Positions 28,101 through 47,989 of a DNA stretch of 64,000 nt are shown here, one piece after another (the stretch's first letter is position 1; the number at the start of each line of letters is the position of its first letter). The stretch is from Thermoanaerobaculia bacterium (GTDB taxonomy: Bacteria; Acidobacteriota; Thermoanaerobaculia; Gp7-AA8). The position numbers and the translations under genes are program-made. Location of the stretch: assembly GCA_041748075.1 (NCBI GenBank), contig JBGTDX010000036.1:58505-122504 (forward strand), read 5' to 3'. The notes under the pieces are model-generated. The model was not told the DNA's origin. It made no database searches and saw only the letters and a program-made list of their open reading frames with translations.

Positions 28101-29451
28101 GATTCTTCCAGCCATGTTCGGACTCGACGAGCAGCTTCGGTATCTCGATTCACTCCAGGCGAGCGGAATCCGGCCCGGACTCGATCGAGTGCGCGCGCTG
28201 CTCGAGCTCGCGGGCTCGCCAGAGCGTCGGTATCGCTCTGTGATCGTAGCCGGAACGAACGGCAAGGGCTCCACCGCTGCGATGCTCTCCGCCATTCTCA
28301 CGGCATCGGGTTACCGCACCGGCCTCTACACATCACCGCATCTTGTCGACATCCGGGAGCGCTGGATGATCGGGGGCGAACCGGTCAGCTCCGGTATCCT
28401 GCTCACCGCGATTGCGCGGCTCCGGGAAGCCGATGAGCGATGCGACTTTACTCCGACATACTTCGAGGCGCTGACCCTCGTTGCCTTCATCGCATTCGAG
28501 CTCGCCGGTTGTGACGTCGCGGTGCTCGAAGTCGGAATGGGCGGACGGCTGGATGCTACCAATGTCGTGGAGCCCCTCGCATCGGTGATCACGCCACTCG
28601 GCATGGATCACACGGAATATCTGGGAGCAACGATCGAGGAGATTGCGTCGGAGAAAGCCGGCATCATCCACAGGGGCTCGATTGCGATCACGTCCAATCG
28701 CGATCCCCGAGTCCTGTCCATCCTCAGTGATCGGGCCCGCGACGTCGGCGCACTGTTGCACCGCACGGCGGAAGAGGCAGTCATCACCAACGTGAGCTCG
28801 CGGATTGACGGGGTGCGGTTCGACCTCCGGACTCCTGTCGCCGGATACTCTCTCGAGAGTCCTCTGCCAGGTGATCATCAGGTGAACAACGTTGCACTGG
28901 CAGTGCGGGCGGCCGAGCTTCTTGCTCCATCACTGACGTCGATCGGCGTCTCATCGATCGAGCAGGGTGTGGCATCCGTTCAGTGGAGAGGCCGGCTCGA
29001 ACTGTTTCACCACGGCGATAAACTCGTCGTCGTCGACGGGGGACACAACTCGCATGCAGCGACTGCCATCGCCACGTTCATCAGTGCGCACCTGCCGCCG
29101 CCGCGCACCCTGGTGTTTGGCATCATGAGCGACAAGGATGTCGAGCCGACCGCGGCGGTCCTCTTCCCAATGTTCCAACGCATCGTGGTCACCAGACCCG
29201 ATCCCGATCGGGCGGTGTCGCTCGTCGCACTTTCAGAAGTCGCCCGACGCATCGGCCTCGACGTGGAAGGAATCGAGGCGCCCGAGGATGCCATCGCTCA
29301 CGCGCTGTCGCTCGAGCCGACGGCTGTGGTGATCTGCGGTTCGCTGTATCTTGCCGGGGCGGCAGTGGCCTTTTTTGACCGTAGAGCGACGACGAGGGAT
29401 GCGAGGACGAGTGCCATCGACAGAAACCATGACAGCGCGACGAGCGTGTGA
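28099..29451 (+). CDS. folC: Bifunctional folylpolyglutamate synthase / dihydrofolate synthase
   Basis: Mur-ligase P-loop VAGTNGKGST plus later folC motifs. Conserved accD-folC neighbourhood. The 3' ~150 nt overlaps the convergent gene. Confidence 0.85.
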   Translation: MILPAMFGLDEQLRYLDSLQASGIRPGLDRVRALLELAGSPERRYRSVIVAGTNGKGSTAAMLSAILTASGYRTGLYTSPHLVDIRERWMIGGEPVSSGILLTAIARLREADERCDFTPTYFEALTLVAFIAFELAGCDVAVLEVGMGGRLDATNVVEPLASVITPLGMDHTEYLGATIEEIASEKAGIIHRGSIAITSNRDPRVLSILSDRARDVGALLHRTAEEAVITNVSSRIDGVRFDLRTPVAGYSLESPLPGDHQVNNVALAVRAAELLAPSLTSIGVSSIEQGVASVQWRGRLELFHHGDKLVVVDGGHNSHAATAIATFISAHLPPPRTLVFGIMSDKDVEPTAAVLFPMFQRIVVTRPDPDRAVSLVALSEVARRIGLDVEGIEAPEDAIAHALSLEPTAVVICGSLYLAGAAVAFFDRRATTRDARTSAIDRNHDSATSV

Positions 29452-31586
29452 CGCCTTCCGAACTGCAGGACGATGTCCGTGCTTCCCGCCGGGACGATGA
29501 CACCGAGGCGATCGAGGTTCAGAGGAACCGTTTCAAGTCGTTGCCCGCCATTGCTTGCGGACCAGGCCGAGAAGTAGCTCTGGTTAATGAGAAGGAGGCC
29601 CGCTTCCGGTGCGTCCACTTCGATGAGGACCTTCTGCCCTGCAAGTGCAACCTTGTTCACCGTGACCGCTCCCGTCGGGATTTTCCGGCCGAGCGGACCG
29701 ACGGTCTGCTTCCGCTCGTCGAAGCCCGGATGTTCGATGGTCCGGACGGCCTGTTGGATCGAGCCAACGGGCGCCAGCCCGCGGACGGGGAAAACCATGG
29801 GCAGAGGATCGGCTACCCGATACGCGTGCAGCTCGTTTCCGTTCACCTGAATGCTGCCGAGCCTCGCCATTCCGGGGCTCGCCGCGGGACTACGGGTGAG
29901 CACTGTTCGCGTGCCGGTGAGCCTGAGATAACGGGATTGGAGCCATGCGGGCGCCGCGCTCATCCGCTCGTTTACGATGCGCGAGAGGCCGGAATACATG
30001 CCGTCCGGTGAGCGGTCGAATGTGTAAGCGACGCCGAACGAGGTGCCGAAGAGAGGATCGAGCATCGCCGCAGCGATCCGGTATCGGGCCCGCGCATGGG
30101 GCTCTGCCAGCTCGAGCGGTTCGGTACCGACCGTGCGCCAGACGGGTGAGGCGACGGCGGCGAGCAGTGCCGGCTCTTCGCGATAGTGACGGGCAAAGTC
30201 GACCGGTGCGGCACGCGCTGCCCAGTAGGCGAGCAGGGGAAACGTCAGCAGCAGCACGGCAAGATTGCGTCGCGTCGGTGAACGAAGCTGCGCGGCGAAG
30301 AGCGTTGCCGCAGCGATCGCTGTTCCAGCGATGGTGCGGAGCTGTAAAGGCGGCGGAACAACCTGGCCAATCAGGGCAGCAACCAGAACGACGAGCAGCA
30401 ACGCGCCGGCCGTCCGCAACAGAACGATTTCTCTTTTTCTCAGATCCGTCGTGGCCAGCCATATCGAGATCAGCAGCACGATCAATATCGTGATGTGCAG
30501 CGAGAGCTTTTCGGGATAGCGCAGCGCCCGGAACAGCTCGAAACGCTCCACCAGCCAGTTCATGATCGGATTGAATCTGCCCAGGGCGATGAAGAGCAGA
30601 GCTCCGGCGGCAGCTTTGAGCCGCATGCGGGGTGCGCCGCCGGCGATGAGCGACGCCGCGGCGATGCCGCCGATCAGGAGTGACGGAAAAAACGGCGGCC
30701 AGCCGCCTGCGCGCCCTCCTGTCCTGTAGCCGGTCTCACCGTAGTCGAGCGCGAGTCCCAGGTATGGACCGATGAGCATCTCCAGCAGCCTCTCTGGCCG
30801 CAGAGAAGCTGCGAGTACGGTGCGTGCGGAATACGTATGCATTCCACGTTCGACCTCGCCTGCGATTTCGCCATAGGAGATGAAGAGAGGCGAGGCGATG
30901 GCGCAGGCGACCAGGGCCGCGAGGGCCACCTGCCGCAGGCCAGCCCACGTGAGCCGGCCCGCGCCCAGTATCAGAACGATGATTGCAGTTCCGAATATCG
31001 TCACGGGCTCGGTGCCCAGCGCGAGTAATCCGCACGAAGCTCCCAGAAGAAGCCCGCTTCGCAGGGTCGGTGCGGCAAGCAGCTGTTCCGCCGTGAGCAG
31101 GACCAGAGGAACCAGAGCCAGCGCGGTCACGAAGTTGTAGAACGCGAGGCAGGACATCGCGACGCCGCTGAGCAGATAGATCCCTGATGCGATGCCTGCG
31201 TTCGTCTGCGTGGCACCGAACAGGCGGGCGAGTGCGCGCATCGTGAAGAACGCTGCCACCAGATGCAGGAGAAAGTGAAGATTGAATGCGACCATGGGCG
31301 AGAAAATCAGATAGAGCAGGTTGTCCGGGTAGAACGTGAGCGTGTTCGGATTGCCGGCGAGCGGCTGGCCTCCCCCCGCGGCGAAGTTCCAGAACGGAAT
31401 GTCTCCGCCGCGCATCACAGCCGCCGAATAAACCTTCACTGGGTAATGCGTCGAAAAGTTGTCCCGGAAGTAAAAGAAGAGGGTAGAACTGCAGAGTCCG
31501 ATCGCGATCGCGACGATGGTGAATCGCAGAGCTGGCACCGGAAGGCGCGTCGACACACCGGCATTATCACCTGTGGCCGCGCGCAT
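29298..31586 (-). CDS. YfhO-like polytopic membrane protein (GT-C-type glycosyltransferase, paralog 1)
   Basis: ~13 predicted TM helices N-terminally then a large extracytoplasmic C-terminal domain. Shares the motif FYPDNLLYLIF with paralogs at 38.2 kb (FYPPQWLVLL) and 45.9 kb (FYPPALVFLL). Confidence 0.65.
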   Translation of the reverse strand: MRAATGDNAGVSTRLPVPALRFTIVAIAIGLCSSTLFFYFRDNFSTHYPVKVYSAAVMRGGDIPFWNFAAGGGQPLAGNPNTLTFYPDNLLYLIFSPMVAFNLHFLLHLVAAFFTMRALARLFGATQTNAGIASGIYLLSGVAMSCLAFYNFVTALALVPLVLLTAEQLLAAPTLRSGLLLGASCGLLALGTEPVTIFGTAIIVLILGAGRLTWAGLRQVALAALVACAIASPLFISYGEIAGEVERGMHTYSARTVLAASLRPERLLEMLIGPYLGLALDYGETGYRTGGRAGGWPPFFPSLLIGGIAAASLIAGGAPRMRLKAAAGALLFIALGRFNPIMNWLVERFELFRALRYPEKLSLHITILIVLLISIWLATTDLRKREIVLLRTAGALLLVVLVAALIGQVVPPPLQLRTIAGTAIAAATLFAAQLRSPTRRNLAVLLLTFPLLAYWAARAAPVDFARHYREEPALLAAVASPVWRTVGTEPLELAEPHARARYRIAAAMLDPLFGTSFGVAYTFDRSPDGMYSGLSRIVNERMSAAPAWLQSRYLRLTGTRTVLTRSPAASPGMARLGSIQVNGNELHAYRVADPLPMVFPVRGLAPVGSIQQAVRTIEHPGFDERKQTVGPLGRKIPTGAVTVNKVALAGQKVLIEVDAPEAGLLLINQSYFSAWSASNGGQRLETVPLNLDRLGVIVPAGSTDIVLQFGRRHTLVALSWFLSMALVLASLVVALRSKKATAAPARYSEPQITTAVGSSDSA

Positions 31587-31649
31587 GGGCTCGTTTTAGG
31601 TCCGCGGCCGGTCCGAATGAAGGAATCTGGCGCCGGCGGTTCGCACCTC

Positions 31650-31684
31650 GTTCTGCATTCTGTATTCTCAATTCTGAATTCTCC
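31650..31684 (+). repeat. Degenerate heptamer tandem repeat (GTTCTGC/ATTCTGT/ATTCTCA/ATTCTGA) upstream of glyA
   Basis: Read directly; same periodicity and core (TTCTG) as the other elements. Confidence 0.45.
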
Positions 31685-31724
31685 ACCCATGTCGTAAGAT
31701 CACTCTGGCGCTCCGGGCGGGCGC

Positions 31725-33017
31725 ATGGAGAACAGGAACATGTCGAAGGTTGAATCTTCCTCGGCTACCGGGCACGACTTTCTGGAACGTGAGCTGCTCG
31801 CCGCCGATCCCGAGATCGCGAACGCGATCGCCCTGGAAACGAAACGCCAGAATGAAACGCTCGAGCTGATCGCCTCGGAGAACCACGTTTCGAAGCCCGT
31901 CCTGACCGCTGCGGGCTCGGTCTTCACGAACAAGTACGCGGAAGGGTATCCGGGAAAACGCTACTACGGCGGGTGCGGTCCCACGGACATCGTCGAGACC
32001 ATCGCCATCGAAAGAGCCAGGGAGCTCTTCGGCGCCGAGCACGCGAATGTGCAGCCCCACTCCGGCTCCCAGGCGAACATGTCGGTCTACTTCGCGATGC
32101 TCAAGCCGGGCGACGTAATCATGGGGATGGACCTGTCCCACGGCGGGCATCTCACGCATGGGCATCCTCTTTCGTACAGTGGCCGGGACTTCAAGGTCGT
32201 AGCGTATGGCGTGAAGAAGGACACCGAGACGATCGACTACGATCAGATGCAAAGACTCGCGGAAGAAAACCGGCCGCGGATGATCATCTGCGGAGCTTCC
32301 GCCTACTCCCGTGTCATCGACTTCGGCCGGATCCGGCAGATTGCGGACAGCGTAGGCGCTCTGATGATGGCCGACATCGCGCACATCGCGGGCCTGGTCG
32401 TCGCGGGCGAGCACCCTTCGCCCGTTCCCCATGCCGACTTCGTCACGACGACGACGCACAAGACGCTCCGGGGTCCACGTTCAGGCCTGGTTCTCTGCAA
32501 GGAGAAGTTTGCAAAGGAGCTCGACCGCGCCGTCTTTCCCGGAGTGCAGGGAGGCCCGCTTGTTCACATCATAGCGGCGAAGGCGGTCGCGTTTCGCGAA
32601 GCGCTCACCGACGAGTTCCGTGAGTATCAGCGTCAGATCGTTCGCAACGCCAAAGTGCTGGCGCAGACGGTCGCGGATGCAGACTTCCGTATCGTGTCCG
32701 GCGGGACGGACAACCATCTTTTCCTCACCGATGTCTTCTCGAAGCAGATCACCGGGAAGGAAGGGGAGAAGATGATGGAGGATGCCGGTATCACAGTGAA
32801 CAAGAACACGATCCCGTTCGATCAGAACAAGCCGATGATCGCTTCGGGACTCCGGATAGGGACCCCGGCCGTTACGACTCGAGGGATGCGGGAAGAGGAA
32901 ATGAAGGAGATCGGCGGTCTGATCGCGCGTGTGCTCGATTCGAAAGGGGCGCCGGATGTCCTGGAGAGCGTGCACGATGAAGTGCTCGCACTCTGCAGGC
33001 GGTTCCCGATCTATTAG
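31725..33017 (+). CDS. glyA: Serine hydroxymethyltransferase
   Basis: [14 protein letters not shown]-lysine region [14 protein letters not shown]. Full-length match to GlyA. Start could be the second ATG at 31740. Confidence 0.95.
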
Positions 33018-33230
33018 CGTTCCCTGCGAAGTAGGCTCGTAGCCGAAGCCGTCGTAGGTTGCGGTCGTACGTCGCCGGTTGGGGAACGTAGCCCGCTCGA
33101 TGCGCGAGATCACCGCGGAGGCTACGTTCCGATTGGGAAACGGAAACGGAACCGGCCACAGTGACGGCTGCGGCGCGCCCTCCGCCCCCCTCACCGCTCT
33201 CATCCTCACCCATGTGCGAAAATGGCCGTA

Positions 33231-33917
33231 ATGCCGAAAAAGAAGGCGCCGTACTATCCGATCTATCTCGACATCGAAGATCGTGATGTGCTGATCGTCG
33301 GAGGCGGCGGGGTCTGCGCGCGGAAGGCGGCCGTTCTGCTTCGGTACGGAGCCCGGGTCACTGTCGTCAGCCCCGTAGTCGCCGAGGAGGTTCGGCGGAT
33401 GGCAGACGCAGGGCAGATCGTGCTGCTGGAAAAAAGCTACGAGCCGGACGACCTCGCCGGCAGCACGCTCGTGATCGCCTCGACCGATGATGCCTGTGTC
33501 AATGCCCGCGTGGCGCGCGATTCCAGGCGGATGCGCATTCCGGTGAATGTCGTTGACGTGACCCATCTCTGCGATTTCATCGTGCCCTCGGTCGTCGAGC
33601 AGGGATCGGTCCAGATTGCAGTTTCCACCAGCGGAAAATCGCCCGCGCTCGCAAGGGAGCTGCGGGCAGCGATCGAAGCGTCGATTGGCCCCGAGTGGAG
33701 TGAGGTCAACGACCTCCTGGGCCGCCTCCGTCCGATCGCGAAGAAGGCGCTCGCCTCGGACCGCGATCGGAAGGAACTGTTCGACTCGATCCTGAACTCC
33801 GGCGTGGTCAATCTGATCCGCGATGGCAGGCGCGACCAGGCCATCGAGCGGATCGCCGCCCTCTGCCGCGAGCGGGGAGTGCCTACCGCGGAGCTCCTGC
33901 CGCCCATCCCGGACTGA
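33231..33917 (+). CDS. Siroheme synthase N-terminal-domain protein (precorrin-2 dehydrogenase / sirohydrochlorin ferrochelatase, SirC/Met8-like)
   Basis: NAD-binding VLIVGGGGVCARKAAVLLRYGARVTVVSP and overall CysG N-domain layout. No uroporphyrinogen methyltransferase domain. Confidence 0.7.
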   Translation: MPKKKAPYYPIYLDIEDRDVLIVGGGGVCARKAAVLLRYGARVTVVSPVVAEEVRRMADAGQIVLLEKSYEPDDLAGSTLVIASTDDACVNARVARDSRRMRIPVNVVDVTHLCDFIVPSVVEQGSVQIAVSTSGKSPALARELRAAIEASIGPEWSEVNDLLGRLRPIAKKALASDRDRKELFDSILNSGVVNLIRDGRRDQAIERIAALCRERGVPTAELLPPIPD

Positions 33918-33920
33918 GGT

Positions 33921-35618
33921 ATGCGAAGCGATCGCAAGGCACTTCTCCTGGTGGTCGCGGTATGGGCCATCAGCACGGGACTCTGGCTCAACCCCGGAAT
34001 AACGAAGCCGGATGGAGTCGGCTATTACGTGTATCTCCCATCGCTCCGGATCGACGGCGACCTGCTGTTCTTCAATGAATGGGATCGCTTCGGGATGATC
34101 GACCGGGGAGTGATTCTCCACAAAGAGGTCACCGCGACGGATCATCTCGGCAACCACTGGACGATCGGGAGTGCGCTCTACTGGTTGCCCTCGTTCCTGT
34201 TCGCTGATCTTCTGCGGACGATTCCGGCGCTTGCGCTGTTTCCGCCCGACGGGGTCTCTCTTCCGTACAACGTGGCAGTTGGCTTCGCAAGCGCGGTTGC
34301 CGGACTGCTGACACTCCTGATGGGATTCCGCGTTGCACGGGAGTTCGTGCCGGTATTTCCCGCTGCTCTCGCAACGATGGGGCTCTGGTTCGGATCGCCG
34401 CTGCTTTTTTATTCAGTGAGGAATCCGATTCTCGGGCATGCGACGTCCGCATTTGCGTGCGGGCTTGTGTTGCTGCTCAGCCTCCGGCTGCGAGTCGAAC
34501 GGGCAGCGTTCTGCTGGTTTGCTACGGGGCTTGCGGCCGGTTTCGCATTCGCGGTGCGCCCGCAGAACGGAACGTTTCTTCTGATGCCATTCGTGATCGC
34601 GGCGGGCTCCGAACGCCCGCCTCTTCAGCGGATCGGTCTGGTTCTCAGCGGCTTCGCCGTGGCCGCATTGCCGCAGGTGATCGTCAGTTTCGTGCTCTAC
34701 GGTACTCCGTACGGATTTCTCACGGGTGGCGGCGCGGCAAAGCCCTTCGCCGCGTTCGAACGGATATGGATCTGGGAGCCGATCCTCTCCTGGTACCACG
34801 GTCTGATTCCATGGAGCCCCATCATTGCGCTGGGGCTCGCGGGGCTCATCCTGCTCTGGCGACGCGACCGGCTGCTGGCAGCCGCGGGGCTTTACGCGTT
34901 CGCTTCGCAGTGGTTCGTCAACGCGACCCTCGAGCGATCGTTCTGGGGTGCGCATGCGTTCGGTCAGCGACGGTTCGACAACTGCACGATCTTCTTTCTG
35001 CTCGGCGCCGCAGTGCTTCTCTCCCGATGGCCGCGCGCAGTGCAGGTGAGCATCGTGGCAGCGACCTCTGTCTGGACGATGTCGATATTCTTCGCGGCGA
35101 TGGGGCCTCTCGATCTCGGTGCGTACTACACGCCGGCTGAGCTGGCTGCCCTGCAGTGGGCGTCCCTTTCGAGTGTAGCCGGCTACCTGAAGCCGTTCGC
35201 CTCGGTTCCTCAGGCGATGAAGGGGATTGTCGCGCTTGTCTGCCTCTGCCTCTGTGCTGCATGGGTCGCAGCGGGCGTTCTGCTGTGGCGCTTCCGAAAA
35301 AACGGCGTTGCGCCGATTGCCGTCTTCGCCGCGGTTTACTTCCTCGTCATGAGCGGTGTCCTCGCATTCGCGGGAAGCACGGGACGAAGCCGGCTGATTC
35401 ACATGCAGTCGCTGATCGGCTTCAACCGGACGGTCAGCGCAGCGCTTGGCGGAGCCGACGCACGGACCGGTCTTCTGGCGGACGAAGCGAGGTACCTCAG
35501 AAAGGCGGGTCGCATCGAGGAAGCTGAGGCAACTGAAATGGAGTTGGCCGCGCTCGAACGCGCGCGGCGCGCCGGCATCGAGCGGCTGCGCGCGATGGCA
35601 GAGGAGGAGCGAAGGTGA
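33921..35618 (+). CDS. Polytopic membrane protein, putative GT-C-type glycosyltransferase with C-terminal coiled-coil/TPR-like tail
   Basis: More than 10 TM helices with a first extracytoplasmic loop rich in Asp/Tyr (PDGVGYYVYLPSLRIDGD). 4-nt overlap with the next gene. Confidence 0.5.
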   Translation: MRSDRKALLLVVAVWAISTGLWLNPGITKPDGVGYYVYLPSLRIDGDLLFFNEWDRFGMIDRGVILHKEVTATDHLGNHWTIGSALYWLPSFLFADLLRTIPALALFPPDGVSLPYNVAVGFASAVAGLLTLLMGFRVAREFVPVFPAALATMGLWFGSPLLFYSVRNPILGHATSAFACGLVLLLSLRLRVERAAFCWFATGLAAGFAFAVRPQNGTFLLMPFVIAAGSERPPLQRIGLVLSGFAVAALPQVIVSFVLYGTPYGFLTGGGAAKPFAAFERIWIWEPILSWYHGLIPWSPIIALGLAGLILLWRRDRLLAAAGLYAFASQWFVNATLERSFWGAHAFGQRRFDNCTIFFLLGAAVLLSRWPRAVQVSIVAATSVWTMSIFFAAMGPLDLGAYYTPAELAALQWASLSSVAGYLKPFASVPQAMKGIVALVCLCLCAAWVAAGVLLWRFRKNGVAPIAVFAAVYFLVMSGVLAFAGSTGRSRLIHMQSLIGFNRTVSAALGGADARTGLLADEARYLRKAGRIEEAEATEMELAALERARRAGIERLRAMAEEERR

Positions 35619-40627: not shown

Positions 40628-41305
40628 CATTCGGAGAGAATCGCGAACGATCCTCACGCGCGAATCGCTCGAGTTGATCCAGACCACGGGTACCTCCCGG
40701 ATTCTGTAGCCCATCTGGCACGCGATCATCAGCATTTCCACGTCCCATGCGAAGCGATCGACGGTGGCCCGCTCGAATACGCGCTTTGCTGTTTCCCGAC
40801 GGAGCAGTTTGAAACCGCACTGCGTATCGGCGAACGGCAGTCCGGTGATGGTGCCCATCAATGCGTTGAAAACCTTTCCCATGCGCTGACGGTACCAGGC
40901 CTGACGCACCCTTACCTCGGATTGTTCGAGAGCTCTCGATCCGATGACCAGATCAGACGACTCGAATGCGTTGAGTAGTTTCGAGAGCTCTTCGATCGGT
41001 GTTGACAGGTCGGCGTCACTGATCAGTACGGCTTCGCCGGTAGCCTCCATGATGCCTCTGCGGATCGCGTATCCTTTCCCGGCATTGGACCGGTATCCGA
41101 CCAGACGGAAAGGAACGACATCCGACGATGTGGCGTTGACGACTGCGGCCGTTTCGTCGCGGCTGCCGTCATCGACGATAATCACTTCATGGATGTTTCC
41201 CTCGCGCGCTGCAAACCCGGCGATGCGTTCGATCGTATCCGGAAGGCGGCGCGCCTCGTTGTACGCTGGGATGACGACCGAGATCGATCGTGGTGAGGAA
41301 TTCAT
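40529..41305 (-). CDS. GT2-family polyprenol-phosphate glycosyltransferase (dolichyl-phosphate hexosyltransferase-like)
   Basis: SVVIPAYNEARRL...IIVDDGSRDET...ISDADLSTP and QCGFKL motifs typical of DPM1/GtrB-like GT2. Divergent from the M20 gene (21-nt spacer). The 3' end overlaps the YfhO-like gene by 99 nt. Confidence 0.8.
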   Translation of the reverse strand: MNSSPRSISVVIPAYNEARRLPDTIERIAGFAAREGNIHEVIIVDDGSRDETAAVVNATSSDVVPFRLVGYRSNAGKGYAIRRGIMEATGEAVLISDADLSTPIEELSKLLNAFESSDLVIGSRALEQSEVRVRQAWYRQRMGKVFNALMGTITGLPFADTQCGFKLLRRETAKRVFERATVDRFAWDVEMLMIACQMGYRIREVPVVWINSSDSRVRIVRDSLRMLFDTLRMRARLGRARCPAPEDGHGDQTQRRED

Positions 41306-41326
41306 GCCGGGAAGGGTAAACCAGAT

Positions 41327-42721
41327 TTGAAGCGTGTGCGTCTGTCCCGTGGTTTCTACGTTGCCGTATTGCTTGCGGTCTCAGTGACCCTCCTGATCGC
41401 CGGCTGGTCGCTGTATGTGAAAAAGACGACTCCGGAAGAGCTGCTCTACGTACCGAAGCGGGCAGTCATGACGCCGGAGCTCGAGCTGCTGCGCCGGTAC
41501 GTGCAGATCGATACGACCAATCCTCCGGGCAACGAAACGGAGGGCGCCACGTTTCTGGTCGATGTACTGAAGCGCCACGGTATCGAGTCGGAGCTCATCG
41601 AATCGGCTCCCGGCCGCGGAAACGTCTACGCCCGCATCGAGGGACGCCGTCCCGGAGAGGGACTGTTGCTGCTCAATCACATCGACGTGGTGGCTGCTGA
41701 TCCGGAGCGATGGAGCAAGCCTCCATTCGAGGGAGACGTGGAGCACAACATGATGTACGGGCGGGGAACGCTCGACATGAAAGGCGTTGGCATTACCCAG
41801 CTCCTTGCATTCATCGAGCTTGCGCGTTCCGGCCGCGTTCCGGAGCGCGACGTTGTTTTCCTTGCGACCGCCGATGAGGAGCAGGGAAGCCGGCTTGGTA
41901 TCGAATGGCTGCTCGAGCATCGGCCGGATGTCATCGAGGGTGTGCGCTACGCGGTCAATGAAGGGGGAATCACCGAGACCATCAAAGAGGAAGTCGTCTA
42001 TTTCGCCGTGGAGATTGGTTCGCGGCAGATGGTCTCGCTCAGGCTCAGCGCCTCCGATCGCGATACGATCCGGCGGATCCGGCTGGAGCTCGAGCCGGAG
42101 TTCACCTCCAGGGATCCCGAGCGTGTTCTTCCCGAGGTGCGCGAGTATTTCCGGTCGATTGCGCCGAAGAGGCTGGCCTTCGCCCCGTATCTTCAGGACA
42201 TCGACGGTACCATCGGGCAGGGCGAGTTCTGGAGGCTGCCCGAGCCCTATCGAGCCCTGACGCGGAACGACATTCTCATGGACGGCCCGTCGGAGCGAGG
42301 CGAGGGGTTCGAAGCCGATCTCTATCTCATCAATCTGCCGGACGAAGATCCCGATCAGGTAATCGCCCGGTTCCGCGAGCGGCTCTCGGGTCACGATGTC
42401 GACATCGAAGTCGTGCGCAAGATGGGCCCTGCGCCAATTTCCTCGACCGATACACCGATGTTCCGTCTCATCGTCGAAACAGTGCAGCGGGAGTACGGCA
42501 GCAACGTGACGGTGGGGCCATTCATCCTTCACGCCGGGACGACGGATTCACGCTACCTGCGCGGAAAAGGCATCGATGTATACGGCGTCTGGCCCTTTCC
42601 GGTCGACTATCACCAGTCGCAGGGTATTCATGGAGCAGACGAGAGAGTGCGTCTCGACTGGTTCATGAGCGGAGTGAGCATGATGAAAAATCTGGTTCGC
42701 GAATACGCCACCGTCGAGTGA
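41327..42721 (+). CDS. Secreted/membrane-anchored M20-family metallopeptidase (paralog A)
   Basis: TTG start. N-terminal signal-anchor. M20 metal-binding motifs (NHIDVV, TADEE, NEGG) and dimerisation domain. Confidence 0.8.
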   Translation: MKRVRLSRGFYVAVLLAVSVTLLIAGWSLYVKKTTPEELLYVPKRAVMTPELELLRRYVQIDTTNPPGNETEGATFLVDVLKRHGIESELIESAPGRGNVYARIEGRRPGEGLLLLNHIDVVAADPERWSKPPFEGDVEHNMMYGRGTLDMKGVGITQLLAFIELARSGRVPERDVVFLATADEEQGSRLGIEWLLEHRPDVIEGVRYAVNEGGITETIKEEVVYFAVEIGSRQMVSLRLSASDRDTIRRIRLELEPEFTSRDPERVLPEVREYFRSIAPKRLAFAPYLQDIDGTIGQGEFWRLPEPYRALTRNDILMDGPSERGEGFEADLYLINLPDEDPDQVIARFRERLSGHDVDIEVVRKMGPAPISSTDTPMFRLIVETVQREYGSNVTVGPFILHAGTTDSRYLRGKGIDVYGVWPFPVDYHQSQGIHGADERVRLDWFMSGVSMMKNLVREYATVE

Positions 42722-43064: not shown

Positions 43065-43565
43065 ATGATGTCCCGGAAACAGAAAGGTTTTACCCTCATC
43101 GAGCTGCTCATCGTGGTCGCGATCATCGGCATTCTCGCCGCCATCGCCATCCCGAACCTGCTCACCGCCATGCAGCGCTCCAAGCAGAAACGCACCATGG
43201 CTGACATGCGCGGCATCGCCACCGCATGGGAAGCCCGCGCGGTCGACGAGAACCGTTACAACGCCGCGGGTGTCACGTTCCCCACAGTCACGCCGACGCA
43301 GGCTCAGATGGCTGGCATGCTCTCCCCCACCTACATCAAGACCCTCCCGCCCAATGACGGCTGGAACAACGCGTGGGACTACTACATCGATGCGGCTGTC
43401 GGTTCCACCAGCGCCTCGGCCCAGAACTACTTCATTCGATCCAGGGGCCGGGACAACCTGGCGATTACCGCTCCTGTCGATGGTGCGACGACCAACTTCG
43501 ATTGTGACATCGTCTACACCAACGGCAGCTTCGTGGTCTATCCGGATGGAGTTCAGCAGAACTGA
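43065..43565 (+). CDS. Type IV pilin / pseudopilin-like protein (paralog 1)
   Basis: AGGAGG RBS. Class III signal peptide KG|FTLIELLIVVAIIGILAAIAIP with Glu at position +5. ~165 aa. Confidence 0.8.
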   Translation: MMSRKQKGFTLIELLIVVAIIGILAAIAIPNLLTAMQRSKQKRTMADMRGIATAWEARAVDENRYNAAGVTFPTVTPTQAQMAGMLSPTYIKTLPPNDGWNNAWDYYIDAAVGSTSASAQNYFIRSRGRDNLAITAPVDGATTNFDCDIVYTNGSFVVYPDGVQQN

Positions 43566-43599
43566 ACGGGTGATCTTCAGGTATCGTGAGGTCGGTGAG

Positions 43600-43629
43600 A
43601 GGGCGTCCTGTGGACGCCCTTTCTTTTTG
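43600..43629 (+). terminator. Rho-independent terminator after pilin paralog 1
   Basis: Perfect 9-bp stem agggcgtcc/ggacgccct with tgtg loop, followed by TTCTTTTTG. Confidence 0.8.
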
Positions 43630-43687
43630 TGAGATCGAGCCGGACCCGGCAGGGACGTCCGCGCGTGCCCGTTCAGGAGGAGATTCA

Positions 43688-44194
43688 ATGCGACGTTCCA
43701 CTGAGAACAGCAGCGGGTTCACCCTAGTCGAGATGATGATCGTACTAGGCGTCGTGGGGGTCCTCGCTGCAATAGCGGTTGCCGCTTTCGGCAACGCGAT
43801 GAATCGGACCCGCCAGAAAAAATCGATGGCCGATATGCGGGCCGTCGCGATTGCGTGGGAGTCGCGCGCATCCGACCACGGAAGGTACAACGCCGCCGGG
43901 TTCACCTACCCGTCGGACGATTACAACCCCGGTGACATGGTGGGCCATCTGACACCAACCTACATCCGCCATCTGCCTCGTGCTGACGGATGGGCGAACG
44001 CTTTTGATTTCGCGGCCGACGAGTCGCTCGGAGCCGTGTCCGAGGTGCAGACCTACGCGATCCGTTCCCGGGGACGGGACGGTATTGCCGAGGGTCCGGT
44101 CTATGCGTCGACTCAGACGACCCGGTTCGACTGCGACATCATCTTCTCGAACGGCAATTTCGCCGTTTATCCGCAGGGCGTGACGCTGGAGTGA
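43688..44194 (+). CDS. Type IV pilin / pseudopilin-like protein (paralog 2)
   Basis: RBS caggagga. SG|FTLVEMMIVLGVVGVLAAIAVA prepilin N-terminus. Body is collinear with paralog 1 (shared KKSMADMRAVAIAWE, TYIRHLP, YAIRSRGRD and RFDCDIIFSNGNFAVYPQGV blocks). Confidence 0.75.
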   Translation: MRRSTENSSGFTLVEMMIVLGVVGVLAAIAVAAFGNAMNRTRQKKSMADMRAVAIAWESRASDHGRYNAAGFTYPSDDYNPGDMVGHLTPTYIRHLPRADGWANAFDFAADESLGAVSEVQTYAIRSRGRDGIAEGPVYASTQTTRFDCDIIFSNGNFAVYPQGVTLE

Positions 44195-44391
44195 TTCGCC
44201 TGCTCGTGGCGAACCTGCAGCGGAGGACGGTCATTGTGGCGAGCGAATGAACCACTCATCGGTACGTTTCCGCGGAGCAGGCTTCATTAGCAGCGATAAT
44301 GGCTGACGCCAACGTGGCGAAAATGGACCGGCACGCGGCGTTATCCGTGCACTCCCGCACGTCCCCGTGTAAGCTGTAGGTTGTCCGCCTC

Positions 44392-45798
44392 ATGACATTG
44401 CCTCGACGCTTACTCGGATGCCTCGCGCTGCTGCTGATCGTCCTCTCGGGCGGCTCCTGCAGGAAGTCGGAAGCCGTGGCGGAAGATCCCGCCGATCTCG
44501 AGGCGGAGCAGTACTTCATCAGCTATCTCCGGATCGATACGTCGAACCCGCCGGGCAACGAGACCGCCGCCGCCAACTTCTTTCATCAGATTTTTCAGAA
44601 GGAAGGAATCGAATCCCGACTGGTTGGCCCGAACCCCGCCCGGATGTCGGTATACGCGCGGCTGCGCTCGGGCGGTTCTGCGCCTGCGCTGGTGCTCATG
44701 CACCATCTCGATGTCGTGCCTGCCGATGACGCGCACTGGACGGTTCCTCCGTTCGAGGGAGTCTCGAAGGGCGGTTACATCTGGGGCCGGGGTGCGCTCG
44801 ACATCAAGTCCATGGGCGTTGCAAACCTCATGGCGATGCTCGACCTGAAACGATCCGGAGCCACCCTGAATCGCGATGTGATTTTTCTCGGAGTCGCTGA
44901 CGAGGAAGTGGGTGGAGCCATGGGAGCTCAGTTCCTGCTCGAGAAACACCCCGAGCTCTTCGAGGGGATCGGGTACGTGCTCAACGAAGGAGGATCGAAC
45001 GAGACGATCGTCGATTACGTTTCGTACTGGGGAATTGAGATCGCGCAGAAAGTTCCTCTCTGGGTGCGCATCTCCACGAAGGGAAGGGCGGAGCATGCGG
45101 CGGTTCCCCCCGACTCGGGCGGCAGCGCGGCGCAGCTGCTCGATATTCTCCGTGACCTCCAGGCCATGCCGCGGCCGTATCACCTCACCCCCGCCGTGCG
45201 TGACTACTTTCTCTCATTGGCGAAAGCGAAGAAGGGAGAGAAGCAGGAGATGCTGCTGAATCCCGAACGTTACGAGAACAACCCGCAGCTCGCCGCGAGG
45301 CTCCCTGCCGGCAGCCGGTCCCTTTTGACCCATACGATGGCGATCACGCGACTTCAGGCGGGCAGTGTGATCAACGCCATGCCCACGGAGGCTTCCGCAT
45401 GGCTGGACTTCCGTCTTCTGCCCGGTTCGTCACCCCAGGCGATGGTCAGAGAGCTCGATAGAGTGATTGGAGATCGGGGAGAGCTCGAGGTCGTGCTCGC
45501 GGGGATCACGACGCCGCCTGCGCCGTCGAATACCGATCTTTATCAGGCACTCGAACGTGTGATGCGGCGCGCCGAGCCGCGCTCGGTAGTCGGGCCGCTC
45601 GTTTCCGCGGGCACCTCTGACAGCCGCTTTTTCCGTGCGCGCGGAGTTCCTACCTACGGGATCTCTCCGTTCAAAGTGAATTACTACGATGGAGACACTG
45701 TCCACGGACCGGATGAGCGGATCCGGAGGACGTTCTTTCTCCAGGGTGTCGGGGTGATGAAGCAGATCGTTCGCGAATTCTGTGTCGAACGGGGATGA
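44392..45798 (+). CDS. M20-family metallopeptidase lipoprotein (paralog B)
   Basis: Lipoprotein-type signal (LIVLSGGSC). Same M20 motifs as paralog A (HHLDVV, VADEE, NEGG). The two N-terminal regions are close paralogs. Confidence 0.8.
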   Translation: MTLPRRLLGCLALLLIVLSGGSCRKSEAVAEDPADLEAEQYFISYLRIDTSNPPGNETAAANFFHQIFQKEGIESRLVGPNPARMSVYARLRSGGSAPALVLMHHLDVVPADDAHWTVPPFEGVSKGGYIWGRGALDIKSMGVANLMAMLDLKRSGATLNRDVIFLGVADEEVGGAMGAQFLLEKHPELFEGIGYVLNEGGSNETIVDYVSYWGIEIAQKVPLWVRISTKGRAEHAAVPPDSGGSAAQLLDILRDLQAMPRPYHLTPAVRDYFLSLAKAKKGEKQEMLLNPERYENNPQLAARLPAGSRSLLTHTMAITRLQAGSVINAMPTEASAWLDFRLLPGSSPQAMVRELDRVIGDRGELEVVLAGITTPPAPSNTDLYQALERVMRRAEPRSVVGPLVSAGTSDSRFFRARGVPTYGISPFKVNYYDGDTVHGPDERIRRTFFLQGVGVMKQIVREFCVERG

Positions 45799-45862
45799 AG
45801 GTTCCCGGAATCCTGAGCCCGCCGGGCCGGACAGGAGATGTTCGACCACTCGAGGTCGCACC

Positions 45863-47989
45863 GTGAGGGCCAGATTTCTCTACGCTGCACTTGTTGCCCT
45901 CGCGCTCGTCCCGTTTCTTCCGGCATTGATTCGTGGCGAGGTCTTCACCCTCCGCGATCACAGCGACTACTTCATTCCCCTGCATCAGTACACGACGGAC
46001 CAGATCCTGGCCGGAGAGCTTCCGCTCTGGAATCCCCTGAACGGGAACGGTGAGCAGTGGCTGGCCAATCCGCAGACGGCGGTTTTTTATCCGCCCGCGC
46101 TCGTGTTCCTTCTTCTGCCGTTCGCAACGGCATACGTGCTCTTTCTGGCGCTGCACGTCGCAGTCCTTGCCGCGGGATCTTTCCTGCTCTTCAGGCGATG
46201 GGTGGATCGAGGTCCCGCGTTCTTCGGTGCGGTGTGTCTTTCGCTTTCCGGACCGACGCTCTCTCTGCTGGATGTATCGAACAACCTGCGAACGTTCGCA
46301 TGGATCCCGCTGGTTCTCTGGGCCGCACTCGAGAGAACAGGAACTGAGTCCCGGCTGCCGGTGACAGTTCCCTCGACGCTTCTCGCCCTGCTCTTTCTGG
46401 GAGGCGAGCCGTTTCTGGCCCTCGTCGGGGCGTTGCTGTTCAGCATCATCGCCGTAAGCAGAAAGCGTTCGGGAGCGCTGCGGGAAATCGGTCAGGCCGG
46501 CATCCTGGCGGCGCTTCTCTCGATGGTACAGATCATTCCATTTCTGGGGATGCTGGCCGGAAGCGATCGCGCGAGCGGCTTCGAGCGCGAGCTTGCCTTC
46601 CGCGAGTCGCTGCATCCCGCCGACTGGTCGCTCCTGACACTTTCTCCAGCGCTGTCGGGAGGCGAGGGTCTGATTGAGTCTTCGCAGAGTTACATCCCGA
46701 TCCTTTACGCCGGTACGGCGGTAGTCTTCCTTGCACTCCTGGGCGTGGCAGGCGCGCTGCGACGCGACGCTGCGCATCGGAGCGTCGTGTTCGCATTCAC
46801 CGGTCTCTTCGCCGGCGTTGCCGTAGTTGCGGCGGGCAGCCACCTCGGTTCTGCAGCCGAGGTACTCGTCGCATTGAAGGTGACGGTGAACCGGTACCCG
46901 GCACGCCTCATCCCCTTTGGAGCTCTGGCTGTTTGTGCGCTCGCGGCCATTGGGGCTCACTCGCTGCGAATGTCAGGGCGGGGAACGCGCGCTGCCGCGC
47001 TCGCAGCGCTTGTCGCGCTCGTGGCGTATTCGGTCAGTAATCATGACCCGGTAGATCCGGCGGCGGTTCCGCTGGCGGCCGGGCTTCTGGCCCTGCAGGG
47101 TCTGCTTCTCCTTCTCATGATTTTGAAGCCGGACCGGTTGCGTCTGATCGTGCCGCTGGGGCTCCTGGTTGCCGCAGACCTCCTCGTTGCTGCACGGCCT
47201 CTGCTCATGACGGGCCCACATCCGGCAGAACTTCCGGCGTTCGTCGGCGGGATCGAGCCGTCGATGAAAATTGCGCGCCTTCCGGACCTGGACCGCCGCA
47301 GCGACTCCTCGCGCCTGGATTCATTGCCCGGCTACACGAATCTTGCGGCGGAAGTCCACAACATCTCGACGGCGGCTCCAGTGAGCGATCGCCGCGCGAT
47401 GCAGCTTCACGACCAGGCGCTATTCACGCCGGACGCCGCGTTGTTGCGATTCATGTCGGTTGGCTATCTCATTACCAATCGGCCGTTGAGTGCGCCTGGT
47501 ATCGCGCCGGTTGCAACGTCGGGTGCTGTACGGCTCCATACCCTTGCGGGTGCGTGGCCGATGGCGACACTCTGGAAGGACTCGCGCCCGCTGGAAGCTG
47601 TGCTGAACAGCTTCGAGTCACCAGGTGCGGCAATCCATCTGAAGCCGGATGGCGAGGCCCACATTCAACGGATGGGCAGCAGCGAGGCGGTCGTGCGAAT
47701 ATCGACGGATGCACCCGCAATGCTCGTACTGAATCAACTCGATGCAGCAGGATGGACAGTTTCCGTGGATGGAGAACCCGCAGAAGGATTACGGGTGGGC
47801 GGACTCTTCCGCGCCGTGCGCGTTCCGGAGGGAGATCACCTCGTGCACTGGCGATACGCGCCTCCGTTTTTCACGATCGGTCTCATGATTTCGCTGTTGA
47901 CTGCGCTGTTTCTGGTCATGATGACAATTCATTTGTCACGCAGCGCGCGAGGTGTTGTAGGATGGCGAAACAGACGCGCCAGACGTTGA
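45863..47989 (+). CDS. YfhO-like polytopic membrane protein (GT-C-type glycosyltransferase, paralog 3)
   Basis: Start set at the in-frame GTG giving MRARFLYAALVALALVPF. The ORF-track start at 45782 would overlap the M20 gene and encodes a non-hydrophobic leader. Shares motif block with paralogs 1 and 2. Confidence 0.6.
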   Translation: MRARFLYAALVALALVPFLPALIRGEVFTLRDHSDYFIPLHQYTTDQILAGELPLWNPLNGNGEQWLANPQTAVFYPPALVFLLLPFATAYVLFLALHVAVLAAGSFLLFRRWVDRGPAFFGAVCLSLSGPTLSLLDVSNNLRTFAWIPLVLWAALERTGTESRLPVTVPSTLLALLFLGGEPFLALVGALLFSIIAVSRKRSGALREIGQAGILAALLSMVQIIPFLGMLAGSDRASGFERELAFRESLHPADWSLLTLSPALSGGEGLIESSQSYIPILYAGTAVVFLALLGVAGALRRDAAHRSVVFAFTGLFAGVAVVAAGSHLGSAAEVLVALKVTVNRYPARLIPFGALAVCALAAIGAHSLRMSGRGTRAAALAALVALVAYSVSNHDPVDPAAVPLAAGLLALQGLLLLLMILKPDRLRLIVPLGLLVAADLLVAARPLLMTGPHPAELPAFVGGIEPSMKIARLPDLDRRSDSSRLDSLPGYTNLAAEVHNISTAAPVSDRRAMQLHDQALFTPDAALLRFMSVGYLITNRPLSAPGIAPVATSGAVRLHTLAGAWPMATLWKDSRPLEAVLNSFESPGAAIHLKPDGEAHIQRMGSSEAVVRISTDAPAMLVLNQLDAAGWTVSVDGEPAEGLRVGGLFRAVRVPEGDHLVHWRYAPPFFTIGLMISLLTALFLVMMTIHLSRSARGVVGWRNRRARR

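Follow-up and report, generated by a model that had tools for sequence, protein, structure and literature searches.

We describe here a locus from a soil acidobacterium of the class Thermoanaerobaculia that probably encodes a lipid-linked periplasmic glycosylation pathway of the 'three-component type', with one conserved donor synthase, a variable set of GT-C transferases, a closely tied M20 metallohydrolase, and type IV pilins as the leading acceptor candidates; we put the probability of this reading at about 0.6. The window (the whole 64-kb stretch of DNA analysed) contains five membrane proteins of the GT-C type (A to E), two GT2 enzymes (GT2a and GT2b), two M20 metallohydrolases (M20a and M20b) and two pilin genes (pilA and pilB) among housekeeping genes, and each of the eleven genes listed in the initial annotation of this DNA corresponds to an open reading frame at the same coordinates or a few codons from them. 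The block is flanked by folC and RNase R and is interrupted by glyA (31725-33017) and cysG(N), the sirohaem-synthase N-domain gene (33222-33917); its GC content is flat (0.59-0.64), and neither mobility genes nor a compositional anomaly is seen within it. The term 'island' used in the initial annotation is thus not appropriate: with housekeeping genes interleaved and a gene order that is ancestral in the class, the block is a stretch of core Thermoanaerobaculia chromosome.

Transferases, donor synthases, hydrolases and pilins

Protein D (796 aa; 38237-40627, forward strand) is assigned to the YfhO family of GT-C glycosyltransferases through its orthologs and its modelled structure. Its own Pfam YfhO score of 22.9 bits is under the gathering cut-off (28.5), and nearly all of its orthologs carry PF09586. 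The best Foldseek matches of its AF2 model (pLDDT 83.8) are AftD, AglB, ArnT, STT3 and EmbA/B, and two stretches are invariant: R38-D39 of loop 1 and, within the periplasmic domain, E568-R-D-Y-D-K-T574. D is the predicted core transferase of the conserved module, a role assigned from family membership. Protein A (762 aa; 29298-31586, reverse strand) by itself has no match in Pfam or NCBIfam, and is recognized as a YfhO-superfamily paralog by BLASTP (E = 6e-21 with D), by hhalign against the D-family profile (probability 99.7%, 700 columns), and by the shared loop-1 motif 'RD...YP...PxWN...NP...FYP'; it has a multi-TM module at the N-terminus and, C-terminally, a periplasmic domain and a single TM helix. 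Protein E (735 aa from the GTG at 45782; 45782-47989, forward strand) passes the Pfam YfhO gathering score (5.2e-15; 55.3 versus 28.5 bits), matches the D-family profile (probability 99.6%, 659 columns), and gives weak matches to NCBIfam PgfM1 and PgfM2. Its start is ambiguous, lying either at 45782, where it overlaps M20b by 17 nt, or at a second GTG at 45863, which leaves a 65-nt gap and is preceded by a GAGG 8 nt away. The proteins A, D and E are paralogous to one another, with 27-30% identity over their N-terminal ~200-400 residues (BLASTP 6e-21 to 1e-13). The initial annotation gave three YfhO paralogs in its text and four in its title; BLASTP and hhalign confirm the three, and tblastn searches of the whole window with A, D and E as queries yield no others.

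Protein B (565 aa; 33921-35618, forward strand) is a divergent GT-C of the PMT_2/ArnT type (GT39/GT83-like). Pfam PMT_2 is matched by 17 of 36 members of its family (best 1.1e-8), NCBI labels one ortholog 'glycosyltransferase family 39 protein', and a near-invariant 'PDGxGYxxYLPS...DxDLxFxNEW' motif follows TM1. Protein C (521 aa; 35615-37180, forward strand), whose reading frame shares 4 nt (GTGA) with that of B, belongs to an undescribed family and is assigned by fold comparison, with ArnT as the closest solved fold (15% identity between the C model and ArnT). All five large membrane proteins are of the GT-C glycosyltransferase type rather than transporters, as had been proposed, and family and fold assignment found no transporters among them.

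GT2a (281 aa; 37222-38067, reverse strand; Pfam GT2 1.7e-20) is a soluble or peripheral enzyme of the polyprenol-phosphate sugar synthase type, divergent from D with a 169-bp spacer between them; its best PDB match is P. furiosus DPMS (5mlz, 2e-12), followed by ArnC. GT2b (258 aa; 40529-41305, reverse strand; Pfam GT2 2.3e-26) is of the ArnC/DPMS/GtrB type, with a canonical DAD motif and PDB matches to ArnC (2e-19), DPMS (2e-17) and GtrB (1.2e-14); it is inserted between these two genes' neighbours D and M20a, on the strand opposite to both, and shares 99 nt with D at their 3' ends. Neither protein has a TM helix, unlike GtrB and ArnC, and neither reaches the curated cut-off of any named NCBIfam equivalog, the nearest models being AglJ, PpgS and Dol-P-hexose transferase (the top matches of GT2a) together with ArnC. 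Both are closer to polyprenol-phosphate sugar synthases than to any other solved GT2 and probably load sugars onto lipid carriers. Their earlier description as Dpm1/CsbB/GtrB-type enzymes agrees with their Glycos_transf_2 domains and these solved relatives.

M20a (464 aa; 41327-42721, forward strand; Pfam Peptidase_M20 4.8e-30) is a putative membrane-anchored periplasmic metallohydrolase with a TM helix at residues 11-29, and its residues H118, D150, E184/E185 and E212 align to the zinc ligands and catalytic base of ACY1 and DapE. M20b (468 aa; 44392-45798, forward strand; Peptidase_M20 3.4e-31, M20_dimer 2.3e-12), encoded directly upstream of E, has an N-terminal hydrophobic signal ending ...LSGGSC and is predicted to be secreted or lipid-anchored. 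The two are 35% identical, and both have an N-terminal hydrophobic anchor or signal and intact metal ligands.

The pilA gene (166 aa; 43065-43565, forward strand) encodes a type IV pilin or GspG-like prepilin (N_methyl 2.6e-11, T2SSG 4.6e-5), probably the major pilin, whose leader ends at KG and is followed by FTLIEL. Directly 3' of it is an intrinsic-terminator-like hairpin (43597-43623, forward strand; a 12-bp stem with 8 G-C pairs, then a T-run), which heads the list of terminator-like sites between 29000 and 48600 and has the longest stem there. Because pilA has its own terminator and lies ~340 bp from M20a, it is not obviously co-transcribed with the module. The product of pilB (43688-44194, forward strand) is 51% identical to that of pilA (BLASTP 2e-59); its ORF opens at 43586, so that the pilA terminator falls within a 5' extension, and has the N_methyl motif at ORF residues 41-65, the start being most likely M35 at 43688 rather than 43586. 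The two type IV pilin paralogs flanked by two M20 proteins that the initial annotation described are confirmed, with an N_methyl motif in both pilins. Within the pilin family the N-terminal 55 residues are near-invariant and the variable loops are moderately Ser/Thr-enriched (16.8% S+T); the pilins have no long Ser/Thr-rich disordered tail of the kind present in streptococcal acceptors.

A predicted pathway and its candidate acceptors

In the pathway that we propose, each step of which is assigned from family membership, GT2a, and here also GT2b, would use a nucleotide sugar to load polyprenol phosphate with a sugar on the cytoplasmic side of the membrane, and a flippase encoded elsewhere would carry the lipid-linked sugar to the periplasmic side. 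The 64-kb window has no ORF for a GtrA-like or other small flippase. The GT-Cs with active-site loops in the periplasm, D, A and E (YfhO), B (PMT_2/ArnT) and C (undescribed), would then pass the sugar to different acceptors, with the conserved TM module binding the donor and the divergent periplasmic domains picking the acceptor. M20a would most likely act together with D on the same substrate, either in an amide- or peptide-trimming step or as a physical partner, and M20b-E would be a second pair of the D-M20a kind.

A similar arrangement is found in CsbB/YfhO of B. subtilis and GtlA/GtlB of Listeria, where, as here, the GT2 synthase gene adjoins that of a YfhO-family GT-C with a large extracytoplasmic C-terminal domain, and the flippase (GtcA) is encoded elsewhere, as appears to be the case here. 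The present locus differs in that GT2a lacks C-terminal TM helices, the YfhO paralogs number three and are joined by two other GT-Cs, and the neighbourhood includes a conserved M20 hydrolase partner as well as pilins; sequence identity is low enough to leave D and A under the Pfam YfhO cut-off. A diderm acidobacterium is not expected to make lipoteichoic acid. That polymer is glycosylated by YfhO-family enzymes and a GT2 in Bacillus and Listeria (PMC5836110). In streptococci, YfhO-family enzymes and GtrB/PgfS-type GT2s instead O-glycosylate Ser/Thr-rich regions of extracytoplasmic proteins (PMC12041528), as with PgfS/PgfM1/PgfM2 of S. mutans and GtrB/PgtC2 of S. pyogenes and S. pneumoniae (PMC12041528, PMC5856776). 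The Pgf-type loci have several YfhO paralogs each, as here, and acceptor (adhesin) genes in the same cluster; however, in streptococci the acceptor regions are long, disordered and rich in Ser/Thr, whereas the pilins here have short Ser/Thr-enriched loops, there is no PgfE epimerase gene in our block, and there is no M20 partner in theirs. A precedent for the acceptor comes from P. aeruginosa, in which pilin is glycosylated by a GT-C encoded beside pilA (bioRxiv 10.1101/2020.04.19.049825). This enzyme, TfpW, adjoins the major pilin gene in group IV strains and uses a polyprenol-phosphate monosaccharide donor for periplasmic O-glycosylation (arabinosylation) of pilin, but it belongs with the Emb-like GT-Cs rather than the YfhO family, carries a TPR domain, and lies downstream of pilA with its donor pathway (DPA) elsewhere, whereas here the GT-C and donor synthase are upstream of the pilin with the M20 gene between. 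By analogy with TfpW and PgfM1/PgtC2, type IV pilins are the leading candidate acceptor.

It is possible, although on balance doubtful, that the same enzymology serves lipid A or LPS core, O-antigen, exopolysaccharide or peptidoglycan, with the pilins mere neighbours and M20a either acting on a peptide or amide part (such as the peptidoglycan stem peptide) or unrelated. Most characterised diderm three-component systems do modify O-antigens or lipid A (GtrABC, ArnC/ArnT; PMC11127046), and the founding YfhO members glycosylate teichoic acids, not proteins (PMC5836110). The PMT_2/ArnT type of B, the ArnC match of GT2b, the ArnT-like fold of C and the terminator of pilA all point the same way, and the organism makes LPS, since an LpxC gene is present at 22473-23558. 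Compared with the ArnC/ArnT route, which transfers aminoarabinose to lipid A, the block has no homologs of ArnA, ArnB, ArnD, ArnE or ArnF, and GT2b lacks the TM helices of ArnC. GtrA/GtrB/GtrC and the pentofuranose systems (PMC11127046) share the logic of cytoplasmic GT2, flippase and periplasmic GT-C, but the window has no GtrA gene, and the block belongs to the core chromosome and not to a phage or an O-antigen cluster, with many GT-Cs per donor synthase. Against acceptors of this kind, the scanned ORFs of the block include no Wzx, Wzy, WaaL or ABC exporter for LPS or EPS assembly, O-glycosylation of proteins by YfhO-family transferases has by now been documented (PMC12041528), and envelope-glycan acceptors would leave unexplained why a pilin gene follows the module in every locus scored while other neighbours vary.

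Conservation of the module among the Thermoanaerobaculia

Conservation in related genomes, which the initial annotation had named as a check, is evident in 80 independent metagenome loci, all from one lineage (Thermoanaerobaculia) and with 49-57% identity to D; the clustering is therefore not due to chance. The order folC-A-glyA-cysG(N)-[B/C]-GT2a-D-M20a-pilin recurs across these metagenomes, with accD also kept in the same order with folC, glyA and cysG-N. D has GT2a upstream of it in 64 of 66 loci, on the same strand in 27 and on the opposite strand in 37, so that the adjacency survives inversion of GT2a, and GT2a-D reproduces the pairing seen in CsbB/YfhO, the analogy drawn earlier, and in PgfS/PgfM1. 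An M20 gene is downstream of D in 63/68 loci and a pilin gene (product ~65% identical) follows it in 47/47; in 26 related loci A is flanked by folC and glyA, and the cysG(N)-GT2a gap holds B in 17 of the 44 with this interval resolved. In most loci scored the stop codon of D touches or overlaps the start codon of M20, most commonly with a 4-nt overlap (14 loci). At one locus (L006) D and M20a form an in-frame YfhO::M20 fusion, a single 1304-aa protein whose junction (TM, basic linker, TM) keeps both globular domains periplasmic; this is one case in 70 loci, and there is none among the 150 best M20a representatives.

GT2a-D-M20a is the tightest conserved unit, and the wider core adds the pilin. 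The initial annotation had missed this unit. B, C, GT2b and M20b-E are variable additions; among 87 related loci GT2b is present in a single one (L008) and is a lineage-specific addition, and M20b is absent from all 87. M20b-E relates to D-M20a with 35% (M20) and 28% (YfhO) identity in reversed gene order and is a second, anciently diverged M20-YfhO pair, which argues for independent pairing of M20 with YfhO.

Since all of the loci come from one lineage in which the housekeeping order of folC, glyA and cysG-N is kept, part of the synteny may reflect inheritance rather than selection. That there is no common pathway at all, with GT-Cs, GT2s, M20s and pilins having unrelated housekeeping roles in a frozen ancestral order, is nevertheless improbable. 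The kept order of the unrelated housekeeping genes accD, folC, glyA and cysG-N and the origin of all loci in a single class would fit such an explanation, as would the genome (L005) in which C is alone between queA and pyrimidine genes, away from any GT2 or YfhO gene. But local rearrangements are frequent and yet spare the core: GT2a is inverted in ~40% of loci and still adjoins D, the presence of B, of C and of extra copies of D varies, and the PilT/Zn-ribbon genes have moved away from the locus in the source genome. The overlapping D and M20a codons, the fusion, and the second M20-YfhO pair argue likewise, and characterised operons provide an independent match to the pairing of GT2 with YfhO (PMC5836110, PMC12041528). 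Very unlikely is a role for the YfhO-like proteins as GT-C-fold scaffolds, translocases or polymerases with M20a as the catalytic component, for example of a pilin- or envelope-protein-processing complex, because the acidic loop-1 motif (R38-D39 in D, with counterparts in both A and E) shows the invariance to be expected of a GT-C active site, and a highly conserved, dedicated GT2 of the donor-synthase type is always adjacent.

We found no earlier description in the literature of a peptidase and pilin linkage with such glycosylation genes. The mean identity of GT2a is ~78%, equal to that of SHMT, whereas the GT-Cs are at ~44-50% and vary in copy number, which fits one donor synthase serving many transferases. 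The locus is a lineage-typical version of a known envelope-decorating route.

Putative transferases of the block

The large membrane proteins A (29298-31586, minus strand), D (38237-40627, plus strand) and E (45782 or 45863 to 47989, plus strand) can be assigned by profile comparison to the YfhO family. E scores 55.3 bits against Pfam YfhO (PF09586), above the gathering cut-off of 28.5 bits, D stays below it at 22.9 bits, and A has no match. Nearly all of the listed D orthologs carry PF09586, and hhalign against a 33-sequence D-family profile aligns A with 99.7% probability over 700 columns and E with 99.6% over 659 columns; E is thus a direct member, and D and A belong by transitivity. The three proteins share 27-30% identity in mutual BLASTP comparisons across the N-terminal membrane module, with weaker C-terminal matches. 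Each has the YfhO architecture of an N-terminal multi-TM GT-C module, a large extracytoplasmic domain and a single C-terminal TM helix (A 715-733, D 757-775 and E 696-714 by hydropathy), which is preceded by approximately 240-270 non-hydrophobic residues. A tblastn search of the window yielded no fourth YfhO paralog, so that the four YfhO-like proteins of the initial annotation are reduced to three.

An exact-sequence look-up with D returned no match, and searching the PDB sequences with B, C and D yielded nothing meaningful, such that profiles and models were needed for classification. In the model of D (pLDDT 83.8) a helical TM bundle precedes a beta-rich domain (607-753) and a terminal helix (756-777), and the structural matches of this model are AftD, AglB, ArnT, STT3 and EmbA/B. 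The predicted GT-C fold of C and D rules out a transporter identity for the large membrane proteins, the outcome that the initial annotation had named as fatal to its own proposal. Within the D family R38-D39 is invariant in loop 1, whose membrane side is assigned from its position after TM1, and the counterparts are 'FRD' in A and 'LRD' in E.

B (33921-35618, plus strand) appears to be a divergent GT-C of the PMT_2/ArnT type (GT39-GT83). Its PMT_2 membership is marginal: B itself does not match PF13231, and 17 of 36 B-family members do (best 1.1e-8). C (35615-37180, plus strand) is better described as belonging to a separate GT-C family, since only one of 35 family members matches PMT_2 and no curated family is reached above cut-off by C; the family is well conserved and lies outside every curated model. 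Neither is C a further YfhO protein, because comparing the C and D families by hhalign gives a probability of 0.2%, that is, no relationship. Loop 1 contains invariant N29-E30, E47 and D61 in the C family, and a nearly invariant D31 and invariant D47 in the B family. The start/stop overlap of B and C, which had been described as translationally coupled, is confirmed as GTGA, with GAGGAGGAG upstream. A protein encoded on a 299-kb contig matches C at 100% identity. In L005 (10001-11578) a C ortholog with 54% identity is flanked by queA and by genes of pyrimidine synthesis, and the 10 kb around it are free of GT2, YfhO, M20 and pilin genes, showing that the C family is not obligatorily linked to the other genes discussed here.

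The GT-A domains of GT2a (37222-38067, minus strand) and GT2b (40529-41305, minus strand) are most similar to the DPMS/GtrB/ArnC/PpgS subgroup, in agreement with their earlier description as polyprenol-phosphate sugar synthases. The nearest solved structures are Pyrococcus furiosus DPMS (5mlz, 2e-12) followed by ArnC for GT2a, and ArnC (2e-19), DPMS (2e-17) and GtrB (1.2e-14) for GT2b. The top NCBIfam models are AglJ, PpgS and Dol-P-hexose transferase for GT2a and ArnC for GT2b, but all scores are at most 84 bits, far under the curated cut-offs of 182-529 bits; no named equivalog is therefore reached and no sugar can be named. GtrB, ArnC and PfDPMS are anchored by C-terminal TM helices, whereas hydropathy reveals no TM segment in GT2a or GT2b. 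However, TM-less polyprenol-phosphate sugar synthases exist, including PpgS, the catalytic domain of mycobacterial Ppm1 and human DPM1, and this difference does not exclude synthase activity.

There is no small flippase ORF resembling GtrA, GtcA or ArnE/F in the 64-kb window, and the locus thus falls short of a three-component system of the GtrABC type. The sole small ORF with at least three TM helices encodes a MauE/DoxX protein (16662-17285) that is not a GtrA-type flippase; it adjoins a gene for a rhodanese-domain protein (16662-17878 for the pair, minus strand). By analogy with gtcA in Bacillus, the flippase may be encoded elsewhere.

Gene order in related genomes

We retrieved 80 metagenome loci containing D orthologs (49-57% identity), all from one class, and mapped the window proteins onto them, counting only where sequence was sufficient. 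GT2a lies upstream of D, or of a few consecutive D paralogs, in 64 of 66 loci, on the same strand as D in 27 of these and on the opposite strand in 37. The gene for the M20 metallohydrolase (M20a, 41327-42721, plus strand) is directly downstream of D in 63 of 68 loci; among the five exceptions, another D paralog intervenes in three, GT2b intervenes in one, and nothing was found in one. A pilin gene follows M20 in every case that could be scored (47/47), as a single gene in 32 loci and as a pair in 15. Mean identities to the window proteins are 78% for GT2a, 78% for SHMT, 65% for the pilin pilA, 50% for D, 50% for M20a, 48% for C, 46% for A and 44% for B.

Other parts of the block are more fluid. 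The slot between GT2a and cysG(N), a sirohaem-synthase N-domain gene (33222-33917, plus strand), was resolved in 44 loci and is empty in 14, contains B in 17, C in ten and both in one, and includes an extra D paralog in two. Additional tandem D paralogs are present in 16 loci, with a maximum of four YfhO-type genes in L042 (265-10307); here and in L017, L020, L030, L057 and L086, arrays of 2-4 paralogs that are 38-47% identical to D surround GT2a, indicating that transferase copy number is strongly variable between related genomes. GT2b is found only in the window and in L008, and no gene resembling M20b (the second M20 protein, 44392-45798, plus strand) or E is present in the 87 related loci searched; GT2b and M20b–E are the only lineage-specific parts of the block.

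In one 5.9-Mb genome (L004) the order is accD, folC, A (minus strand), glyA, cysG(N), C, GT2 (minus strand), YfhO, M20, three pilins, Zn-ribbon, PilT, ruvX and yceG. A second genome (L006) is similar, but here YfhO and M20 form one fused gene (YfhO::M20), and the GT2 gene shares its strand and terminates 4 nt ahead of it. The PilT-like ATPase and Zn-ribbon genes follow directly after the pilins in both genomes. In the window the PilT-like T2SSE ATPase (5566-6741, plus strand) and Zn_ribbon_4 protein (6594-7310, plus strand) adjoin ruvX and yceG, so that a rearrangement has placed approximately 36 kb between them and the pilins.

The description of the block as an island, and with it horizontal acquisition, is ruled out by flat composition (GC 0.59-0.64 across the window) and by a gene order common to more than 80 loci of the class. 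Housekeeping genes lie within the block and on both sides of it, including folC (28099-29451, plus strand), glyA (SHMT; 31725-33017, plus strand) and the RNase R gene (48429-50636, plus strand). The remainder of the window carries typical core-chromosome genes (LpxC, MutL, SerRS, DsbD, RuvX, YceG and others), and its nearest relatives are metagenome-assembled genomes of Thermoanaerobaculia (Acidobacteriota). The combination and paralog number that had been called unusual are real, but the 80-locus mapping identifies them as a lineage trait rather than an acquisition.

Several additional features of the region were noted. Two convergent gene pairs overlap at their 3' ends, folC and A by 154 nt (29298-29451; an overlap is also present in L004 and L007), and D and GT2b by 99 nt (40529-40627). 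At the left edge of the window a partial 649-aa ORF (44-1993, plus strand) encodes several TM helices and, C-terminal to them, a large soluble part; it matches no Pfam family, shows no detectable resemblance to A-E, and may represent another large membrane protein of the envelope. The next gene (2007-3878, minus strand) encodes a protein-kinase-like domain and a C-terminal TonB_C domain. Its place beside yceG is kept in L006, where a weak PMT_2 protein of 597 aa is encoded just past it, at the position corresponding to 44-1993. A bacterial archaeo-eukaryotic release-factor-like protein of baeRF family 10 (E 1.9e-28) is encoded at 11901-13013 (minus strand).

The M20 proteins and the pilins

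M20a and M20b are 35% identical, match Pfam M20 (5e-30 and 3e-31, respectively), and each has an N-terminal anchor or signal. Both retain the features that define peptidase family M20, namely the Pfam domain, the metal ligands H, D, E, E/D and H, and the general-base Glu. Residues H118, D150, E184/E185 and E212 of M20a align with the ligand motifs of ACY1 and DapE, and the C-terminal 'HGADE' and 'HGPDE' motifs can be read directly from the sequences; M20a is thus predicted to be catalytically competent.

The longest M20 frame overlaps the D stop codon or starts a few bases from it in most loci scored, a 4-nt overlap being the commonest configuration (14 loci). In L006 the two genes form a single in-frame fusion (10001-13915) of 1304 aa, whose junction consists of the YfhO C-terminal TM helix, a basic linker of approximately 30 residues and the M20 TM anchor, a predicted topology that keeps both globular domains periplasmic. 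An exhaustive HMMER search with M20a revealed no further fusion among the best 150 representatives, all of 514 aa or less. In locus L073, considered as a second fusion, the D frame ends within the M20 region, so that the two frames probably just overlap. M20b and E constitute a second M20–YfhO pair; with 35% identity to M20a and 28% to D these are ancient paralogs, and since the gene order is opposite they did not arise by simple duplication of D–M20a.

Local rearrangement is frequent, as illustrated by GT2a inversion, the variable content of B, C and extra D paralogs, and relocation of the PilT/Zn-ribbon pair, yet GT2a, D and M20a remain contiguous. This contiguity, together with the overlap and fusion of D and M20 and the second M20b–E pair, leads us to argue that GT2a, D and M20a probably work together beyond mere co-inheritance, with the caveats that the fusion is a single case and that the loci all belong to one class.

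The pilins pilA (43065-43565, plus strand) and pilB (about 43688-44194, plus strand) are 51% identical and have canonical class III leaders, with G-1, F+1, E+5 and a hydrophobic N-terminal helix. N_methyl matches are 2.6e-11 and 5.9e-7, the junctions are KG|FTLIELL and SG|FTLVEMM, and pilA scores above cut-off for TIGR02532. Among the pilins the N-terminal 55 residues are nearly invariant and the variable loops are enriched in Ser/Thr, which make up 16.8% of residues overall and 40-90% of local columns; in the window pilA these loops include TFPTVTPT, GSTSAS and GATT. For a possible assembly of the pilins by T4P machinery the context is indirect, namely the PilT-like ATPase that adjoins the pilins in L004 and L006 and is encoded at 5566-6741 in the window.

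Candidate acceptors and wider meaning

The system that we propose would work like CsbB/YfhO, PgfS/PgfM1, GtrB/PgtC2, ArnC/ArnT and GtrABC. From family membership, GT2a would load a monosaccharide onto polyprenol phosphate on the cytoplasmic side, a flippase encoded outside the window would carry the lipid-linked sugar across the membrane, and the GT-C enzymes would transfer the sugar in the periplasm via acidic residues that are invariant in loop 1 (R38-D39 in D, N29-E30 and D61 in C, and D31 and D47 in B). Similarity among the GT-C paralogs is highest in the membrane module and lowest in the periplasmic domain, and GT2a is conserved far above any GT-C, a pattern that fits a single donor shared by several acceptor-specific transferases. 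Enzymes of the M20 family cleave amide bonds adjoining an amino-acid carboxylate, and M20a, if competent as its sequence suggests, could trim a peptide or acyl group from the same candidate substrate as D.

Two acceptors of D come into question, each of them tentatively. The pilin is suggested by its invariable position after M20, its Ser/Thr-enriched loops, the PilT-like ATPase following in relatives, and precedents: the GT-C TfpW, whose gene adjoins pilA, uses a polyprenol-phosphate donor to glycosylate the pilin (bioRxiv 10.1101/2020.04.19.049825), and YfhO-family PgtC2 with GtrB, as well as PgfM1 with PgfS, O-glycosylate extracytoplasmic proteins (PMC12041528). Against a pilin acceptor, a terminator with a 12-bp stem directly 3' of pilA makes this gene its own transcription unit, and the pilins do not have long Ser/Thr-rich disordered tails. 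The main rival, a glycan or lipid acceptor (LPS, lipid A or EPS), is likewise possible but doubtful; it draws on the ArnT-like character of B and C, the ArnC-like character of GT2b, and the glycan targets of most three-component systems that have been characterised in diderms (PMC11127046). Non-protein acceptors are more likely for B and C than for D. The most specific form of the pilin reading, to which we give a probability of only about 0.2, is that GT2a–D–M20a is a dedicated pilin-modification module, in which D would O-glycosylate the pilin with a single sugar from a polyprenol-phosphate donor, and M20a, membrane-tethered and complexed with D, would act on the same substrate, either trimming the pilin or cleaving an acyl group off an amino-acid-like component of the modification. 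Cyanobacterial Ogt was considered as a pilin glycosyltransferase analogue and set aside, its paper containing none of the terms GT-C, transmembrane, PMT, family 39 or dolichyl.

Periplasmic lipid-linked GT-C glycosylation has been studied in depth among Firmicutes, Proteobacteria and mycobacteria; we found no description of it in the literature on Acidobacteriota, which are abundant soil bacteria, and nothing relevant on Thermoanaerobaculia pilin glycosyltransferases. The locus is mainly of specialist interest and opens no long-standing question. What is new is the host lineage, the YfhO-type expansion in a diderm, family C, the conserved YfhO–M20 pairing and the fixed pilin neighbour. The YfhO family, whose enzymes have been called universal in Firmicutes, is here expanded in a diderm lineage, where the acceptor is probably not teichoic acid, and C adds a GT-C family that has no curated model. 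The conserved partner of a GT-C is a periplasmic M20 metallohydrolase, with overlapping start and stop codons and one fusion; our literature searches found no description of YfhO with M20, which points to a processing step not yet described. The invariable pilin neighbour provides a concrete, testable candidate for pilin glycosylation outside the PglL/TfpO paradigm. If GT2a, D and M20a do modify the pilin, they would represent a new pilin glycosylation route unrelated to both PglL/TfpO and TfpW, and the first described functional pair of a GT-C and a metallopeptidase.
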